64,000 nt of DNA from a virus, in the IMG/VR virus record IMGVR_UViG_3300032242_001694; one strand, 5' to 3'. A program made the translations under genes and the position numbers. The notes beneath the pieces are model-generated. The model ran no database searches and was not told the origin of the DNA. It worked only from the letters and a program-made list of their open reading frames with translations. Shown in pieces: positions 48,109 through 55,230 of the stretch (its first letter is position 1; each line of letters opens with the position of its first letter).

Positions 48109-48498
48109 TCAGCTGTTTCCTTTCTCTGGGTTTCTAAACTTTAAGTCGATGGAGTCAACTACTCGTAGTGTACCGATCTCAGCACCTTCATCGGTGAATA
48201 CGCTATTGGCCAGCTCGGTGAATGGATGCTCCATGCCGTGATACTTACAAAGAAGAGCCCTCACCGCCTCAACGATGAAAGCTCCGTCTTTAATGTATGC
48301 GTCTTCCTGATCTTCCTCGATGCCGAAGTCAAAGGCTGCTGCCTCGAGTTGAGTGAATAGCTGTGGAATCACGTTGGCCAATGTCTCGTTGATGTGATAG
48401 TGCTTGAGGAACGACATGCGGTCGTCGACTTCAGACTCGTCTAACGGGATAAACTTAGTGTTTGAGTTACTCTTTGGAAACTTTATGACGTTGTCCAT
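48109..48498 (-). CDS. Hypothetical protein
   Basis: MDNVIKFP start; promoter TTGACA-17-TAATAT at 48514-48542. Confidence 0.65.
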   Translation of the reverse strand: MDNVIKFPKSNSNTKFIPLDESEVDDRMSFLKHYHINETLANVIPQLFTQLEAAAFDFGIEEDQEDAYIKDGAFIVEAVRALLCKYHGMEHPFTELANSVFTDEGAEIGTLRVVDSIDLKFRNPEKGNS

Positions 48499-48551: not shown

Positions 48552-49544
48552 TTATGCGTTGTCGCTTGCCAGAACGGTAGAGCCCTCGGTGGTGAACTTA
48601 AAGTCGTACACCTTGCACTGTGTATTGCACTCTAGATCGTTGATTAGTCCTGCTCTTTTGTCCTGTGGTACGTAGAACACGAAGAACCCGCCACCACCTG
48701 CACCGAGAAGCTTACCACCTAGAGCTCCAGCTTTCATTGCGCAAGTATAGACTTCGTCGAAGTAGTCGCTGGTGATCTCCTTGACGATACTCTTCTTATC
48801 CATCCACGCATCGTTGAGCAGGGCACCGAATGAATCTACGTCGCGATCGATCAGGTGACCCAGCGCAATGTAAGCCTTATCGCGACTTCTCTTCACAAGA
48901 TTTAACTTATCTTTATCACTCATCGCAGCGCTCTGCTTCTGCAGGATGCTGTTGGCCGAACGACCGATCCCGCTGTACACGAGTAGCAGGTTGTTCTCGA
49001 GTAGCTTCAGCGTGAACGGATCAATCTTGGATGTGTCGTACAGTATTACCTGATCTTTAGCGAACTGGAACAGGTTGACTCCACCCCAAGCAGCTGCGTA
49101 CTGGTCCTGCTTACCAACGGGATACCCACACTTCTCCATCTCAATCATGCACGCGCACTCGGCGAGCTGACTCTTGTTTGGCCTGATGCCCGAGTAGCTC
49201 GAGAGCGCGTTGACGAGTCCGACTGTAAATGCAGATGAAGACCCCAGTCCCGATCCCTTGGACAAGATGTCCGAGATGGATGAGACAGTGATCTCCTTGT
49301 TGATCTGAAAGTACTTGAGCGTCTCGCTCGTGATACCGCTCTGCATTGTCTCTACGTCCGGAAACTCCTCGATCTGGTCATACATGACCTTGACACCCAT
49401 GTGCTTGGTCTTATGCAGCATAACGTAGATGTACTTGTCGATCGTGACTGACAGGGCAGCACCGAGATCATCTTTATAAAACGACGGCATGTCACTGCCG
49501 CCGGAGAAGAAGCTGATGCGAACTGGTGTGCGGGTGATGATCAT
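48552..49544 (-). CDS. hddA: D-glycero-alpha-D-manno-heptose-7-phosphate kinase (GHMP family)
   Basis: RTPVRISFFSGGSD, GSGLGSSSAF, GKQDQYAAAWGG, GGKLLGAGGGGF. Confidence 0.85.
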   Translation of the reverse strand: MIITRTPVRISFFSGGSDMPSFYKDDLGAALSVTIDKYIYVMLHKTKHMGVKVMYDQIEEFPDVETMQSGITSETLKYFQINKEITVSSISDILSKGSGLGSSSAFTVGLVNALSSYSGIRPNKSQLAECACMIEMEKCGYPVGKQDQYAAAWGGVNLFQFAKDQVILYDTSKIDPFTLKLLENNLLLVYSGIGRSANSILQKQSAAMSDKDKLNLVKRSRDKAYIALGHLIDRDVDSFGALLNDAWMDKKSIVKEITSDYFDEVYTCAMKAGALGGKLLGAGGGGFFVFYVPQDKRAGLINDLECNTQCKVYDFKFTTEGSTVLASDNA

Positions 49545-50542
49545 GTCTTATACCTAAACATCTCTACTGGTTTCTTGCGCGACTCTACGTCTGGATAATT
49601 TTTGAGCATAGAGCTGAGTAGAGTCTCCCACTTAGACTTGATGCGATCGATGTTGTAGCGACTATCCACGAAGAACTTATTGAACCGGATAACTTCCTCA
49701 CTCTTCTTAGTCTCTACCATATGGATCGCTGCTTCGAGGTGACGAGCAAAGATGTTGGCGTGCTCGTTCTTGTTGTTAAAGTCACCCTGATACATGATGT
49801 TGAGAGCTCCTGAAGTCTCAGGAAGTGCGCCAAAGTTAGGATGCACGCACAACAAGCCAGCAGACATAGCCTCAAGCATTGCGCGACAGCTGGTCTCTAG
49901 CCAGATGCTGGGATACGCGTGGATGTGAGCTGTGTTAAGGTAAGACTTGAGATCGTCGTTGGGTACGAACCCGTGATAAGTCATCTGAGGATGACTGCGA
50001 ATCTCGTCGTAGAGTGGCTCGAACTGTTCATCAGCTTGATCCCAGCCATAGATCTTAAAGCTTGAGAACACGTCGAGATGAATGTTGGGATACTTCTCAG
50101 CCAGATGCTTGAACACTGGCACCAGCAGCTCCAGCCCACGCTGCGGAGTAGACGTATAGCAGATGTGGATCTTACCGTCGTAGTCTTTCTGCAGACAGCT
50201 ATTAGGAGCTGGCTCGATACCAGACTCAAGGATGATAGACTTATTGTCGTAAGGCAAGCCGTGAACTAGCTGGTAGCGCTGGTACTGCCAGTCAGAAATG
50301 AACACGAACTTGTGGATGCTGTCGATAAAGTTCTTATCTTGAAACTTCTTGCTCTCCGGATCTTCAGGTAGATCGTGACACCAGAATAGCCTGATCTTAT
50401 CTTCTTCAAACTCGCGATGGCGAGACGAGATGATCTGGAAGTTCTCGAGTAACTTCGGGTCAATGATCTGTGCTAGCTTTCTCTTCGCAATCTCCGTACC
50501 GCCGAACGCGTTCTTGGAGATCTCATTCTCTTCAAAACTCAT
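49541..50542 (-). CDS. Glycosyltransferase, GT4/GT-B fold
   Basis: GGTE, WCHD, YTSTPQRGL, YPSIWLETSC..LEAMSAG..GALPET. Confidence 0.85.
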   Translation of the reverse strand: MSFEENEISKNAFGGTEIAKRKLAQIIDPKLLENFQIISSRHREFEEDKIRLFWCHDLPEDPESKKFQDKNFIDSIHKFVFISDWQYQRYQLVHGLPYDNKSIILESGIEPAPNSCLQKDYDGKIHICYTSTPQRGLELLVPVFKHLAEKYPNIHLDVFSSFKIYGWDQADEQFEPLYDEIRSHPQMTYHGFVPNDDLKSYLNTAHIHAYPSIWLETSCRAMLEAMSAGLLCVHPNFGALPETSGALNIMYQGDFNNKNEHANIFARHLEAAIHMVETKKSEEVIRFNKFFVDSRYNIDRIKSKWETLLSSMLKNYPDVESRKKPVEMFRYKT

Positions 50543-51273
50543 ATTGTAAATCCACTCTTGGTTGCATCATTGAAGAACATCTTACACGTATCGAGAGAGA
50601 ACTCATTCAAGTCTTTGCCGAGTATGTCAAGCTTCTTGATCAAGTCTGGAGTCATCGTGATGATGTCTGCTCCAACCCTCTCTGCCTGAATATAATTATA
50701 TGATTCACGAGGTGATGCCCAGAGTAACTCAACATTGTAAAGCATGTCCGAGTCGTGCTGCAACAAGCGATAAGCTTTAGCATCTTCAAACACTTCGATA
50801 GGATCTACACCAGCGTCTGCAATGCGACCGGCAAAGATTGAGATGATTGATGGTACTTTTGGATTTAAGTTGGCGAGTGTAGTGATTACTTGAGCAACTG
50901 TGAACACAGCCGTTACGTTGAGCTTGACGCCTTCATGACTGAGATGCTTAATGACTTGACTCGTGTAAAGCCCATTAGTGAACATGATTGGGATCTTTAC
51001 ATAGATCGGGTAATTGTACTTACTGGACCACTCATGTATCTTGAGAGCCTGATCTACCATTCCGTAGTGGTCGTCTGCAAAGACCTCAAAGCTAATACAC
51101 GTATCAGGTCGAGTAGTTGACAAAAAGTCCAGCACTTTGTGTGCGAACTCACCATAGTCAGTCACTCCTGCTTGTCGCATCAAAGTTGGGTTGGTAGTAA
51201 ATCCCGTGATTTGTGAGTTTTGAGATGCTTTAACAATACCGTCAAAGTCTGCGCCATCAGCGAACAGCTTCAT
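50539..51273 (-). CDS. tal: Transaldolase (short TalC/FSA type)
   Basis: LFADGA, GFTTNPTLM, ISFEV, YVKIP, LNVTAVF, SIFAGRIAD, LWASPRE; start reset to ATG 51273. Confidence 0.9.
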   Translation of the reverse strand: MKLFADGADFDGIVKASQNSQITGFTTNPTLMRQAGVTDYGEFAHKVLDFLSTTRPDTCISFEVFADDHYGMVDQALKIHEWSSKYNYPIYVKIPIMFTNGLYTSQVIKHLSHEGVKLNVTAVFTVAQVITTLANLNPKVPSIISIFAGRIADAGVDPIEVFEDAKAYRLLQHDSDMLYNVELLWASPRESYNYIQAERVGADIITMTPDLIKKLDILGKDLNEFSLDTCKMFFNDATKSGFTI

Positions 51274-51781
51274 TATATAACTCCTTAATGATTTCACATG
51301 CGTGTAGTATATTAGCAGCGTAGTAGTCTGGCTCTTTATCAAGAGGCTGGCCACCGATGTAGATAGTCTTTACACCAGCAGCTCTACCAGCCTCAATGTC
51401 TTTCCATGAATCGCCGATCATAAAGCTCTTACTCTTATCGACTGAGTAGTAGTTGGTGAGCTCGTTAATCATACCTGGATTAGGCTTGTAAAGCTCAGAA
51501 CCTCTGCGACAAGCGCAGAGGTAATCGTCGATCTTTAGATCTCTCTTGATCTTTAGCATGATCTTAGACAAGTCGTCAAATGTCATCTTAAAGTCAAGAG
51601 CGTCTGGCTGATTTGTGACTATAAAAGTATTATATCCAAGTTCTTTAACTATGTCAATAGCTTTGTTGACGTCCGGTAGATACTCAAACTCTTCAAGCTT
51701 CCAAGGAGGTAGCTTAACACCATCCCTGTCAATCATCTTGTTGATGACGCCGTCGCGATCAAAGAATATAGCTTTTACCAT
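51257..51781 (-). CDS. gmhB: D,D-heptose-1,7-bisphosphate phosphatase (HAD)
   Basis: FFDRDGVIN, IVTNQPD, KPNPGM, MIGDSWKDIEAG. Confidence 0.88.
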   Translation of the reverse strand: MVKAIFFDRDGVINKMIDRDGVKLPPWKLEEFEYLPDVNKAIDIVKELGYNTFIVTNQPDALDFKMTFDDLSKIMLKIKRDLKIDDYLCACRRGSELYKPNPGMINELTNYYSVDKSKSFMIGDSWKDIEAGRAAGVKTIYIGGQPLDKEPDYYAANILHACEIIKELYNEAVR

Positions 51782-52362
51782 TTTGTCTTCTTGATCTGGA
51801 GCTTAGGATGAGATACTACGCAGTGCCACACTACTGCTTGAAAAGCTTCGCTGTGTGGAGTAACTCTTTTAGGTGACAGCTCAGGAACTACCACTGCGAC
51901 GTCAGAGTGTAAAGCAGCGTAGCCGTTCTTCTTGCCAACGATACAAACTACTGTGCCGTCCATTTCACGAGCTTCTTTAATAGCTTCAATTAAGTTAACA
52001 GACACATTCTTCTGTTCGTCACCACCACCCACTGACAAGATAAAGATGGCGTCATTGTGACGAAACTTGCTTACGTTTAGATACTCTCGGAAGACTGTGT
52101 CAAAGCCTTCATCGTTTGTGCGAGCAGTGAGTTCGCTAACATTATCTGTGGGAGCATAAGCCTCAATCCCACAGAGCTTGCGTAGATCATTGACGAGATG
52201 GGAAGCATTGCCAGCTGAACCGCCGACACCAAGTACAAACACTCGGCCGTCGGTAACGTCTCGGACTTTGACAAGTGCATTGACCAGTTCCTCTACTTTG
52301 TTTTTGTCGATAGCATTAGCAATATCAATTACTTCGTTGAAGTACTCATTAGCAAAACTCAT
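51775..52362 (-). CDS. gmhA: Phosphoheptose isomerase (SIS domain)
   Basis: GVGGSAGNASHLVND, TARTNDEG, LSVGGG, EAFQ; clustered with gmhB and hddA. Confidence 0.85.
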   Translation of the reverse strand: MSFANEYFNEVIDIANAIDKNKVEELVNALVKVRDVTDGRVFVLGVGGSAGNASHLVNDLRKLCGIEAYAPTDNVSELTARTNDEGFDTVFREYLNVSKFRHNDAIFILSVGGGDEQKNVSVNLIEAIKEAREMDGTVVCIVGKKNGYAALHSDVAVVVPELSPKRVTPHSEAFQAVVWHCVVSHPKLQIKKTKW

Positions 52363-52760
52363 TTCAATCGTCCTCTCAGTTCACTCGAGCTATAACTATG
52401 CGCGCGATGGTTGAATACTATATTTATGCCGCGGATGTCGCAGATGGATTGTCCGGTAATCTTATCATTAAAGTGATCGGCACCAACAAACCGTGTATTG
52501 ATCTCAAGAGTTCCCATCATATTTACGAGATCTTTCTCGGTATCGTATGGGATGATCTCATCTACAAACTTGCAGGCGTTGAGCTGCATCCATCTTTCAT
52601 AGATCGTTTGAATAGGCTTATTCTTCTCTGGCCTGTCGATAGTTGGGTCGCTGTGTAGTCCAACTATTAGATAATCACATTCTTTCTTACACTCAGCAAG
52701 CATTGCAAGATGACCTGGATGTAGTAGGTCAAAAGCCCCGCATGTAAATCCCACGTTCAT
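52359..52760 (-). CDS. HIGH-motif nucleotidyltransferase (TagD / RfaE domain II-like)
   Basis: GAFDLLHPGH, LIVGLHSD, KPIQ..ER, VGADH, YSSSELR. Confidence 0.85.
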   Translation of the reverse strand: MNVGFTCGAFDLLHPGHLAMLAECKKECDYLIVGLHSDPTIDRPEKNKPIQTIYERWMQLNACKFVDEIIPYDTEKDLVNMMGTLEINTRFVGADHFNDKITGQSICDIRGINIVFNHRAHSYSSSELRGRLK

Positions 52761-53317
52761 TACTTAATCCTAAATGTTCTAGCCTCACCGTGTCGACGTC
52801 CTAAAAGCTCTACCTCAAAGCCGGTATCATTGAGGAACTCGAGAAAAGCCTTGAACTCATGATTCTCATAACCAGGATAGTCCATGAACTCGTCGAATGC
52901 AATTACAGTTCCAGAGCGAATACGCTTCTTAAGCTTCTGCAAGATACAAGCAGCTGCTGAGTAGATATCTACATCGATATGGATGAAAGACACTGGGCCT
53001 TTATTAGCTTTTAGAAAGCCATCAATTGTATCTTCGATGAGACCGACTACCAAGACTACATTGTCTTTTACAGTTGGCACCTCACACTTGAAAGATCCTT
53101 TGCCGATGCTAGGTCGCCAATCTTCAGGTAATCCTTCAAACGAGTCAAAACCATAGACCTTGTCTGTTGTATGCTCAGCAATTTCATTGATAGTTCTACC
53201 ACTGGCAACTCCAAACTCAATGATCATACCTTTAGCTTTGCAGAACTGAAGCATCTGCTCAAAGCCGTGAGGATCATAGTTGGAGTTGGCTAGAGCGTAG
53301 AGTTCTTCAGACGTCAT
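52760..53317 (-). CDS. SAM-dependent O-methyltransferase (TylF/MycF-like)
   Basis: IEFGVASG, GFDSFEGLPEDW, FIHIDVDIYS, IAFDE. Confidence 0.85.
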   Translation of the reverse strand: MTSEELYALANSNYDPHGFEQMLQFCKAKGMIIEFGVASGRTINEIAEHTTDKVYGFDSFEGLPEDWRPSIGKGSFKCEVPTVKDNVVLVVGLIEDTIDGFLKANKGPVSFIHIDVDIYSAAACILQKLKKRIRSGTVIAFDEFMDYPGYENHEFKAFLEFLNDTGFEVELLGRRHGEARTFRIK

Positions 53318-54132
53318 TTGATCACCATGTAAGTGTTCTTGCCATCGGCAACAGTTTCGTTGTGCAAGAAGAACTCTGGATTGCGATCGGCAAACTTCTC
53401 TTTAAAGTAGTCTTCGTTGTTGATCGTGCCAAAGATCTTAGCCTGATACATAAGCAGCCAGTTAGTAGAGTCGACGATGCGTTCCATGATTGTCTCACGG
53501 AAGTCAATCGGGATCTCACTGAGTGACCAAGTAGCGATTACCAGATCTGCTTTCTCAAGCTCTGACGGCTCAGTTGCGAAGTTACATGCGATGTCTTGCT
53601 TCTCCAGATAGTAGCGCTGGACGTTCTGTACTTCTGGGAAGTCGTAGATCGTGTACTTGCCGGTGAAGCCCATGTCATGAACTACCGAGCACATGTCACC
53701 GTAGCCTCCACCGATCTCAACGATGCTCTTGTATCCCTGCAGCATCTCAGGAGTAAATCCGCAGATGGCAAGGTGAGCTACGTTTTGAACGCGCTGCATG
53801 CTTGTGTCGAAGTCGTCTGCTACTTTAAGAAATCCATTCTGAGACTCAGGAATACCGATCCAGTTCTCGCGAAGCGCGTAGGCTACCTTCTCATCCTTCA
53901 TCGCTGCGTCGAATGCAGCACCAAGGAAACGAGCTACTCGGCCAGTAGTTACAAGCGGTACGTTGTGAACTGATGCCCAGAGGCGGAAGCGAGAGAGTGG
54001 CAAGGTGGCTGTGTCGTGCTCGAACACCTTGCGCATGGTTGGCCAGTACTCTGGTCCATTTACCTGTTTAGCCTTGATCTGCGTCTGAGACATCTCTGAC
54101 TCATGATTAAAGTCGGACCAAATATAATTCAT
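53314..54132 (-). CDS. Putative sugar O-methyltransferase
   Basis: IVEIGGGYG, YTIYDFPEV..QRYYL, DLVIATWSLSE; start reset to ATG 54132 (GGAG SD). Confidence 0.78.
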   Translation of the reverse strand: MNYIWSDFNHESEMSQTQIKAKQVNGPEYWPTMRKVFEHDTATLPLSRFRLWASVHNVPLVTTGRVARFLGAAFDAAMKDEKVAYALRENWIGIPESQNGFLKVADDFDTSMQRVQNVAHLAICGFTPEMLQGYKSIVEIGGGYGDMCSVVHDMGFTGKYTIYDFPEVQNVQRYYLEKQDIACNFATEPSELEKADLVIATWSLSEIPIDFRETIMERIVDSTNWLLMYQAKIFGTINNEDYFKEKFADRNPEFFLHNETVADGKNTYMVIK

Positions 54133-54147
54133 AACAAAAGTCTCCAA

Positions 54148-54516
54148 TTATTGCGGGCTAGGAGCTTGGCGCTCTAGGAATGCAGTGTTGTAAGTCGTTG
54201 CCTTGAAGTGCTTCTGAACAAGACTGATAACAGTCTCAGGATCAAAAGTCTTACAGGAAAACACGTCGAGATAGACATGGTCATGCTCGTTAACGAAGTG
54301 AGCGCAGATGTTACTGGTCTCGATAAGCTGTACTAGGGTGTACCCAGCCTTATTACCACTACCAAAATTTACAATTTGTGGTTCGCCATAAGCAACCATG
54401 TCGATCTCAACGACAAGTTCTTTGACAAACGCATAGATGGTGTCATAGCTGGTGATCGCTTCGTGATCACAGCCGCCGGAATCGAGAATTAAGTGATAGC
54501 CCCAGTAGTCGCTCAT
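54148..54516 (-). CDS. speD: S-adenosylmethionine decarboxylase proenzyme
   Basis: WGYHLILD, GYTLVQLIETSNICAHF, YLDVFSCK. Confidence 0.85.
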   Translation of the reverse strand: MSDYWGYHLILDSGGCDHEAITSYDTIYAFVKELVVEIDMVAYGEPQIVNFGSGNKAGYTLVQLIETSNICAHFVNEHDHVYLDVFSCKTFDPETVISLVQKHFKATTYNTAFLERQAPSPQ

Positions 54517-54556
54517 TTCATGTATGCTCCTTTAGCGTTGAACGGTGTGTTATTTA

Positions 54557-54832
54557 TTAGAATCCATCAACGATTTCTGCGTACTCAACTGAGTCAACGC
54601 GGAACGACCGCCAAGCATTCTTTTGGAGATCCCACACTGCGATAGTCTCTTGGTTCTCAGGACGCTTGTGTGCTTCCTCAAGAGCTACTTTGTTTGTCTG
54701 TGGTGGGAGGTTCTCAGGAAGGAGCGTGCAGATCATCTCACGCTTTTCTCCATTGACTTTTGTAAAGTGGATCTTACAAGTGTGGAGCTTTAGATCTTGC
54801 AGAAGGGTATCTCGGTTCACATAAGTTTGCAT
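54557..54832 (-). CDS. WYL_2/DUF2693-like SH3 barrel protein
   Basis: IHFTKVNGEKREMICTL, VWDLQKNAWRSFRVDSV. Confidence 0.8.
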   Translation of the reverse strand: MQTYVNRDTLLQDLKLHTCKIHFTKVNGEKREMICTLLPENLPPQTNKVALEEAHKRPENQETIAVWDLQKNAWRSFRVDSVEYAEIVDGF

Positions 54833-55124: not shown

Positions 55125-55131
55125 AGTCCTA

Positions 55132-55230
55132 TTATAACCTCTCTTGCCAATATTTGTCAACATCTATTTTAGATTCCGGATCATATCCGTGCATTACCAT
55201 ATCAATGCTTATCAAATGTTCTAGTAACAT
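55132..55230 (-). CDS. Micro-protein (32 aa) overlapping the nrdC promoter
   Basis: Not in track; GAGGTG SD; MLLEHLISIDMVMHGYDPESKIDVDKYWQERL; contains TTGACA-18-TATAAT (55131-55160). Confidence 0.55.
   Translation of the reverse strand: MLLEHLISIDMVMHGYDPESKIDVDKYWQERL

Follow-up and report, generated by a model that had tools for sequence, protein, structure and literature searches.

A nine-gene operon in a T4-like phage genome

The stretch analysed here, IMG/VR virus record IMGVR_UViG_3300032242_001694 (64,000 nucleotides, hereafter the window), is part of the genome of an uncultured T4-like myovirus with baseplate wedge and hub genes, nrdA/nrdB, rnh and phoH, and it carries on its minus strand an operon of nine genes that we examine as a candidate system for making and transferring an activated sugar. 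Its nearest cultured phage is distant: gp6 of the window is only 36% identical to that of the Caulobacter phage Cr30, and a megablast search of the operon against cultured phages gave no match. Upstream of the operon lie nrdC (glutaredoxin) and a WYL_2/DUF2693 gene; downstream come a gene for a 129-amino-acid protein, rnh, a DUF6433 gene and phoH. A sequence-only reading of the window had proposed nine open reading frames (ORFs) here, and all are present at the coordinates and in the families that it gave. In order of transcription they are:

54148-54516, minus strand: speD-like S-adenosylmethionine decarboxylase homologue (AdoMet_dc, 7e-22; below the NCBIfam cut-off)
53314-54132, minus strand: MT1, class I S-adenosylmethionine methyltransferase, possible sugar O-methyltransferase (TIGR04371, NanM-like, 8e-9; Methyltransf_2, 0.0015)
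52760-53317, minus strand: MT2, TylF/Methyltransf_24 methyltransferase (Pfam match; phrog_6608, 1e-45)
52359-52760, minus strand: NTase, HIGH-motif, cytidylyltransferase-like nucleotidyltransferase of the HldC/TagD/ECT superfamily (CTP_transf_like, 5e-15; phrog_7878, 2e-33)
51775-52362, minus strand: gmhA-like SIS-domain ketose-phosphate isomerase of a 'cassette' subtype (13 of 13 solved relatives are phosphoheptose isomerases)
51257-51781, minus strand: gmhB-like HAD-IIIA sugar-bisphosphate phosphatase (GmhB models, 3e-22, below cut-off)
50539-51273, minus strand: tal, transaldolase of the TIGR02134 ('Staphylococcus/Coxiella') type (TIGR02134, 2e-81)
49541-50542, minus strand: GT4-family retaining GT-B glycosyltransferase (Glycos_transf_1, 5e-12; EX7E motif)
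48552-49544, minus strand: hddA-like GHMP sugar-phosphate 1-kinase (NF049969 HddA, 1e-45, below cut-off)

From MT1 through hddA each start overlaps or abuts the preceding stop, with overlaps of 1-17 nucleotides (nt), so the earlier description of the genes as closely coupled holds. The proteins are all acidic and free of membrane segments, and catalytic motifs are intact in the NTase (GAFDLLHPGH, its HIGH motif), the kinase (GSGLGSSSA), the phosphatase (DRDG and KPNPGM) and GT4 (EX7E). The true start of the transaldolase is ATG 51273 behind AAGGAG, not GTG 51354; that of MT1 is likely ATG 54132 behind GGAG, not TTG 54147. The two methyltransferases belong to the families first proposed for them, a sugar O-methyltransferase and a TylF-like enzyme, but the link of MT1 to sugars is weak (the TIGR04371 match covers 48 amino acids) and no solved relative of MT1 was found. 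MT2, whose best solved relative is the TDP-rhamnose 3'-O-methyltransferase CalS11 (4e-7), is probably an O-methyltransferase acting on a sugar or a nucleoside-diphosphate (NDP) sugar. The search for solved relatives of the speD homologue was also negative; in this protein Thr-Ser (IETSNI) replaces the Glu-Ser self-cleavage site of class 1 AdoMet decarboxylases.

Six genes form the conserved unit

Relatives of GT4 number 360 in IMG/VR, and the window proteins were compared with 82 viral loci, 40 of which span the full site from WYL_2/nrdC to rnh; these loci do not count as independent of one another. The NTase, gmhA, gmhB, tal and hddA genes occur together in 37 of the 40 spanning loci, two hold none of the five and one lacks the NTase only. 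By the sequence-only reading, a failure of the genes to recur as a unit in relatives would have been one refutation, and in this respect it is upheld. GT4 is present in all 40 loci, speD in 39, MT1 in 21 and MT2 in 10. The order NTase-gmhA-gmhB-tal-GT4-hddA is fixed, the NTase adjoining gmhA in 37/40 and the hddA-like gene adjoining GT4 in 38/40, and MT1 and MT2 shift position or drop out. The functional unit comprises these six genes, with MT1 and MT2 as optional accessories: the two methylation steps that had been ascribed to the operon are encoded in the window, yet only as additions to the unit. The speD gene, which had been counted as a member, is a syntenic neighbour and no part of the sugar unit, because the loci L046, L053 and L067, which lack the pathway, still have it adjoining GT4, and L013 has it at another place. 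In two of these pathway-less loci (L046:739-1320 and L053:7121-7702) a 193-amino-acid Redoxin/AhpC-TSA gene lies between speD and GT4.

GT4 is the anchor of the locus

The glycosyltransferase stands out by its conservation. Database homologues number 1963, of which the best 120 are 66-89% identical to it, several of them on contigs of 130-170 kb. Across relatives GT4 is 67-75% identical where gmhB is 36-47% and tal 47-59% identical; the EX7E residues E216 and E224 are invariant, and the N-terminal half is likewise rich in invariant residues. Orthologues are found in cultured phages, namely Stenotrophomonas phage DLP6 (43%), Cr30 (41.5%) and the Sinorhizobium phages phiM12 and phiN3 (38%). At the equivalent site phiM12 has nrdC, a DUF2693 gene, the glycosyltransferase, two unknown genes, rnh and phoH, and no heptose genes there. 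The Cr30 glycosyltransferase has hddA as its immediate neighbour and gmhA, an epimerase and an NTase in the vicinity. GT4 is thus older than the pathway genes, which came to surround it between nrdC/WYL_2 and rnh. Its age, and its presence in phages whose hosts differ strongly in their surfaces, suggest that its acceptor is conserved, be it part of the phage or a host molecule of universal occurrence, and is not a host-specific O-antigen. Two donor-site changes in the EX7E motif of the pathway-less phages, S218A and L223I, were considered as a marker of the pathway and rejected: phiM12 and DLP6 are also pathway-less and keep S218.

The transaldolase belongs to a cellular cassette

The transaldolase scores 272.9 bits against TIGR02134 (cut-off 282). 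Residues D6, E63, K93, N119, T121, S145, F147 and R150 are invariant in eight phage homologues and align to the Thermotoga transaldolase, so that the Schiff-base lysine, the catalytic aspartate and glutamate, and phenylalanine (not tyrosine) at the position that discriminates transaldolases from fructose-6-phosphate aldolases are all in place. A scan of one genome per prokaryotic species gave at least 546 cellular relatives, and the loci of the best 80 (46-52% identity) were examined. They come from Alphaproteobacteria, Solirubrobacterales, Acidobacteriota, Legionellales/Coxiellaceae, Cyanobacteria, Spirochaetes, Planctomycetes, Patescibacteria, Micrarchaeota and methanogens. Within 10 kb of the cellular tal lies a gmhA-like gene in 71/80 loci, a gmhB-like gene in 66/80 and an hddA-like gene in 44/80, the usual order being gmhA, gmhB, tal. 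The gmhA-like genes of these cassettes are 42-61% identical to the phage gene, canonical GmhA being far more distant.

By ORF clustering and Pfam, a typical cassette consists of gmhA-gmhB-tal, a NAD epimerase/dehydratase, hddA, a GFO/IDH/MocA oxidoreductase and an NTP_transferase (the last in 28 of the cellular loci); examples among loci L097-L176 are:

L105:5246-12389: cellular cassette
L150:5288-12999: cellular cassette
L104:8800-13700: cellular cassette

The cassette is frequently accompanied by an enzyme of the UDP-glucose-dehydrogenase family, a short-chain dehydrogenase/reductase (SDR), methyltransferases, GT2, GtrA and an ABC-2 transporter, and because of these neighbours we assign it to surface-glycan loci. 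A second variant replaces hddA and NTP_transferase by a fusion of a cytidylyltransferase-like domain and a PfkB domain. This fusion (518 amino acids; L142:12753-14309 and 15 further loci) has the cytidylyltransferase-like domain at its N-terminus and PfkB at its C-terminus, the reverse of the HldE order. Neither cellular variant has the phage pairing, in which the kinase is of the GHMP type and the HIGH-motif NTase stands alone.

In trees with the cellular proteins the phage tal sequences form one clade, as do the phage hddA sequences. The gmhA-gmhB-tal core is thus a widespread cellular cassette that was captured once by the phage lineage, the single uptake of the triad being read from the single tal clade. 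The idea of an operon of the phage's own making is not borne out, since its core was captured from cells and now surrounds a phage GT4 of greater age.

The proposal that the transaldolase feeds a sugar pathway, instead of acting on carbon flux, gains from these neighbourhoods, since the closest cellular homologues so often have a gmhA-like gene beside them. The cyanophage talC and the window tal are alike in being short transaldolases of the TAL_FSA family carried by aquatic T4-like phages; in contrast to talC, the window protein belongs to the TIGR02134 subfamily and is 35% identical to talC over 85% of its length, and whereas talC stands alone, tal of the window type is always embedded between gmhB and GT4. 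These comparisons support placing the transaldolase in a sugar-nucleotide pathway and not among general carbon-flux genes. Our literature search found no paper that joins HddA, GmhA and transaldolase, or Coxiella heptose and transaldolase, and none that describes the cassette.

A putative route to an activated heptose

We hypothesize, with a probability of roughly 0.6, that the six-gene module makes and transfers a nucleotide-activated higher-carbon sugar, most likely NDP-D-glycero-D-manno-heptose. Judged by family and context, the transaldolase would form sedoheptulose 7-phosphate from fructose 6-phosphate and erythrose 4-phosphate, the GmhA-like isomerase would turn it into heptose 7-phosphate, the HddA-like GHMP kinase would add a phosphate at C1 and the GmhB-like phosphatase would remove the 7-phosphate; the HIGH-motif nucleotidyltransferase would then form the NDP-sugar for transfer by the retaining GT4, with O-methylation by MT2, and less surely by MT1, where these are present. 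Heptose is the likeliest product because the solved relatives of the isomerase, the kinase and the phosphatase are all heptose enzymes and because heptoses are common in bacterial glycans. The solved relatives of the GmhA-like protein are all GmhA (best 2.5e-11; 52 bits against cut-offs of 209-320), and it keeps the catalytic/zinc residues H61 and H180 (E. coli numbering). The best solved relatives of the HddA-like kinase are WcbL (6e-40) and Campylobacter jejuni HddA (4e-36; 156 bits, cut-off 600), and that of the GmhB-like phosphatase is E. coli GmhB (1.5e-12; 79 bits, cut-off 178). Orthology of the Cr30 kinase was dropped as proof of the same sugar, since Cr30 HddA is a long, unplaced branch in the tree.

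The NTase is the weakest link. It matches rfaE domain II (7e-20; 71 bits, cut-off 181) and TagD (49 bits), and its solved relatives are the ethanolamine-phosphate cytidylyltransferase ECT (1e-22), BpHldC (8.5e-9) and TagD (2e-8). It is presumed to activate the sugar 1-phosphate, a role read from its position next to gmhA. The operon holds no HddC-type guanylyltransferase (NTP_transferase, PF00483), a PF01467 enzyme being found instead, and no PfkB domain of a heptose-7-phosphate kinase occurs among the nine ORFs; PfkB was found only in the cassette variant with the fusion (L142).

Several findings weigh against the heptose route. None of the pathway enzymes reaches its NCBIfam equivalog cut-off, so their names are best taken at family level only. 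In the GmhA-like isomerase E65 is changed to Asp and Q172 to Glu, and a 6-residue insert alters the Ser/Thr phosphate loop, which makes a different ketose phosphate possible. Some Vibrio and Acinetobacter phages without a gmhA/gmhB homologue have an isolated NTase 50-55% identical to that of the window, and the substrate of the window enzyme is therefore uncertain; of the earlier placement of this enzyme in an NDP-heptose route, the gene, the family and the HIGH motif stand and the substrate is in doubt. An HddA kinase (alpha route) and an HldC-like NTase (beta route) form no known pair. The 80 cellular loci, picked by likeness to the phage tal, are a biased sample. Among the phages, moreover, the fact that tal and the heptose genes are present or absent together counts as one event, because the loci without the pathway group in a single clade of the GT4 tree. 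Finally, fold searches with the predicted GT4 model (GT-B fold, pLDDT 81, pTM 0.81) against solved and viral structures returned only generic retaining GT4 enzymes of every acceptor class, with TarM, SdgB, GtfA, PimA, BshA and MshA as top folds; they do not indicate an acceptor, in line with the sequence-only reading, which had left the choice between virion proteins, DNA and the host surface.

As for the stand-alone NTases themselves, they sit amid genes of no known function, for example in Acinetobacter phage Ab1-TPeters (L092:5983-6456) and Vibrio phage pv27 (L093:5989-6453), and their annotation as 'bifunctional heptose kinase/adenylyltransferase' is doubtful.

Alternative products and acceptors

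The earlier identification of the product as heptose stands as the likeliest one, but an octose route with the same enzyme logic also fits, and an NDP-octose or other non-heptose higher sugar made along the lines of lincosamide synthesis is an unlikely alternative. The transaldolase would then be the committed step, moving a C3 unit from fructose 6-phosphate or sedoheptulose 7-phosphate onto ribose 5-phosphate to give octulose 8-phosphate, and the later enzymes would act on C8 compounds. According to papers on lincosamides, the same enzyme set is found there in LmbR (transaldolase), LmbN (isomerase), LmbP (kinase), LmbK (phosphatase) and LmbO (nucleotidyltransferase) (PMC4351081, PMC5854111). 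A dedicated transaldolase is kept in cells expected to have a full pentose-phosphate pathway (cyanobacteria, alphaproteobacteria), and the isomerase has diverged into a subtype whose substrate loop is changed. The epimerase, the UDP-glucose-dehydrogenase-family and the GFO/IDH/MocA enzymes of the cellular cassette may further parallel LmbM, LmbL and LmbZ, given the protein families of LmbL and LmbZ. In its broadest form the proposal would make gmhA-gmhB-tal the mark of a widespread bacterial and archaeal pathway with a committed transaldolase (to octulose 8-phosphate or an unusual ketose), from which phages attach an NDP-octose-type sugar, optionally O-methylated, to virion or DNA; we rate this a long shot. 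Every solved relative of the isomerase, kinase and phosphatase is, after all, a heptose enzyme, genes for precursor supply are frequent in sugar clusters, and octoses are rare in known bacterial glycans, in which D,D-heptoses and their derivatives are common. Far less probable still is that auxiliary metabolic genes came together here as a mosaic by chance, speD and tal serving carbon or polyamine metabolism and the genes sharing no pathway. This reading draws on the fact that speD, talC, phoH and a 2OG-Fe(II) oxygenase, common stand-alone auxiliary genes of aquatic T4-like phages, all occur in the region; yet gene order is fixed and reading frames overlap across dozens of divergent relatives, and the gmhA-gmhB-tal triad recurs in 66-71 of the 80 cellular loci. 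The mosaic therefore fits speD only and is contradicted for tal by both the 40 phage and the 80 cellular loci.

For the acceptor of the putative heptose, our best guess, at somewhat less than even odds, is a conserved phage component such as a virion protein. Next, not far behind, comes transfer onto a precursor of the host envelope (lipopolysaccharide (LPS) core, O-unit or capsule), masking receptors and excluding other phages. For pelagimyophage and cyanophage glycosyltransferases this role has already been suggested (PMC7029224), GT4 enzymes commonly build LPS and capsules, and the cellular cassette is located in surface-glycan loci with GT2, GtrA and ABC-2 genes. Such a target sits poorly with a GT4 that is, its N-terminal acceptor half included, among the slowest-evolving genes of the region and that has orthologues in Sinorhizobium, Caulobacter and Stenotrophomonas phages, whose hosts differ in surface glycans; nor does the operon encode a membrane segment, a flippase or a ligase. 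Transfer onto phage DNA against restriction (glycosylated hydroxymethylcytosine, as in the glucosyl-hydroxymethylcytosine of T4 or the arabinosyl-5-hydroxycytosine of RB69/DLP3) is disfavoured and, in our estimate, improbable. The RB69/DLP3 pathway follows the same logic, with a SIS isomerase, a kinase, a HAD phosphatase, an NTase and GT4-like DNA transferases (PMC13326640), and one complete relative, G002 (167.8 kb), encodes a ThyA homologue of the hydroxymethylase type (N177D, L143D, D169 kept) within the following cluster, composed of MazG-like, Nmad1, ThyA-like and dCMP deaminase genes and three unknown ORFs:

G002, 95.2-101.1 kb (L181:15260-20000 and L182:1-1101; L088): hydroxymethylcytosine-type cluster

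In G001 and G003, however, the operon is complete and the flanks of this cluster are conserved, yet 0/7 of its ORFs are present and there is no ThyA-family hit; the cluster is an insertion/deletion difference between G002 and these two genomes, and the operon is for this reason independent of a hydroxylated base. The co-occurrence with base-hydroxymethylase genes that had been suggested as a check thus fails in G001 and G003. Moreover, phiM12 and Cr30 combine the GT4 orthologue with an ordinary, high-scoring ThyA and DLP6 has no ThyA, GT4 is acidic (pI 6.0; N-domain 5.4), and the hydroxymethylcytosine cluster carries unassigned ORFs of its own.

Promoter motifs and neighbouring genes

Ahead of the operon lies a late-type motif:

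54550-54557, minus strand: late-promoter-like motif AATAAATA (NATAAATA type), 41 nt upstream of speD

The ATAAATA first reported at 54551-54557 is present as part of this AATAAATA, which matches the T4 consensus TATAAATA at 7/8 positions; set against it are an overlap with the stop codon of the upstream WYL_2 ORF and a window-wide count of the 7-mer that shows no enrichment (21 observed, 15.9 +/- 3.9 expected). A late promoter upstream of speD is nevertheless plausible, because the equivalent site in relatives holds a perfect TATAAATA in 5/27 distinct intergenic sequences (ATAAATA in 11/27) and because the remaining NATAAATA copies on the minus strand, in the 43-64 kb part of the window, are likewise 34-116 nt ahead of gene starts. 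Early-type GTTGACA promoters occur near the AATAAATA motif. Within gmhB, about 355 nt before the transaldolase start, a 12/12 match to a sigma-70-type promoter (51629-51657, minus strand) might drive tal-GT4-hddA separately.

A perfect sigma-70-type promoter (GTTGACA, 18 nt, TATAAT; 55131-55161, minus strand) lies within the long glutaredoxin ORF, and nrdC itself probably starts at the ATG a few bases past the -10 box (MIGHVEIY...), so that its mRNA would have no leader or only a very short one. In L009 (6544-6822) and about 15 further loci a conserved 92-amino-acid ORF (MKK(L/I)VMVD...) separates the WYL_2 gene from speD; it is absent from the window and gives only a faint AbiGii_2 match. On the other side of the operon, the acidic 129-amino-acid protein (48109-48498, minus strand), which has no family match, is encoded directly before rnh in 38/40 relatives, is 31-48% identical across them, and has its own early-like GTTGACA (48543) and NATAAATA (48555) motifs; judged by position, it could be a T4 gp33/DsbA-like factor.

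Significance and comparison with known systems

Heptose genes of phages and NDP-heptose enzymes of viruses have been published before. What we believe to be new is the cassette-type transaldolase triad with its wide cellular spread, the hybrid pairing of kinase and NTase, and the anchoring of the pathway on a phage GT4 that is both ancient and conserved. In textbooks, transaldolases of phages figure as 'carbon-flux' auxiliary genes, and here a different subtype stands in what is probably a sugar-nucleotide pathway. The recurrence of the triad in surface-glycan loci of many bacterial and archaeal phyla offers a testable role for the TIGR02134-type subfamily and draws attention to the cellular cassette. 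The module is kept in dozens of uncultured T4-like relatives on a slowly evolving GT4 shared with phiM12, Cr30 and DLP6, which points to a conserved glycosylation target, and Cr30 on Caulobacter provides a cultured system in which to search for it. That a kinase of the alpha route is paired here with a HIGH-motif nucleotidyltransferase poses a concrete question of enzymology in itself.

The closest biochemical parallel is the GDP-D-glycero-alpha-D-manno-heptose pathway of Aneurinibacillus thermoaerophilus, C. jejuni and Burkholderia pseudomallei (WcbL). Its isomerase, GHMP kinase and HAD phosphatase are of the same families as those of the window and are their best solved relatives, and its alpha-linked donor fits a retaining GT4. 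The window departs from it in having a HIGH-motif NTase in the place of HddC, an embedded transaldolase and scores far below the equivalog cut-offs. The viral NDP-heptose enzymes reported by Tang et al. (Science 2024, as summarised in PMC11573728) form a four-step relay from sedoheptulose 7-phosphate along the beta route with a PfkB kinase, and include single-domain nucleotidyltransferases in viruses, as in the window; the window kinase is instead of the GHMP type, its NTase reads RAHSYSSS at the position of the (F/L)XXGRSTT motif, and its unit includes a transaldolase and a transferase. Among phages, Cr30 (heptose genes gp006-gp010 and gp178) shares the arrangement of the glycosyltransferase (41.5%) directly beside an HddA-like kinase (40%) and has a GmhA, an epimerase and, near rnh, a 46% identical NTase; unlike the window it lacks gmhB and tal, and its GmhA is of the ordinary type (32%, 2e-7). 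The Synechococcus phages Bellamy and SynMITS9220M01 have larger heptose clusters with other enzymes and a class II aldolase instead of a transaldolase; the Bellamy 'aldolase' beside the isomerase, considered as a transaldolase, was rejected as being that class II enzyme.

Two further systems show the same enzyme logic applied to other sugars. In the lincosamide octose pathway LmbR adds a C3 unit to ribose 5-phosphate, followed by LmbN, LmbP, LmbK and LmbO (PMC4351081, PMC5854111), and it is the only described pathway we found with a dedicated transaldolase beside GmhA-, HddA- and GmhB-like enzymes and an NTase. The phage module has this clustering of a transaldolase with an isomerase, a GHMP kinase, a HAD phosphatase and an NTase, and most of the cellular loci have the triad; the lincosamide pathway differs as a Streptomyces antibiotic route to GDP-octose with an NTase of the NTP_transferase type, the comparison with the Lmb enzymes being one of described roles only. 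The arabinosyl-5-hydroxycytosine route of RB69/DLP3 likewise starts from a ketose of the pentose-phosphate pathway and is phage-encoded from isomerase, kinase, HAD phosphatase and NTase to GT4-like transferases (PMC13326640), but it needs a ThyA homologue to supply the hydroxylated base, whereas operons of the window type occur without one.

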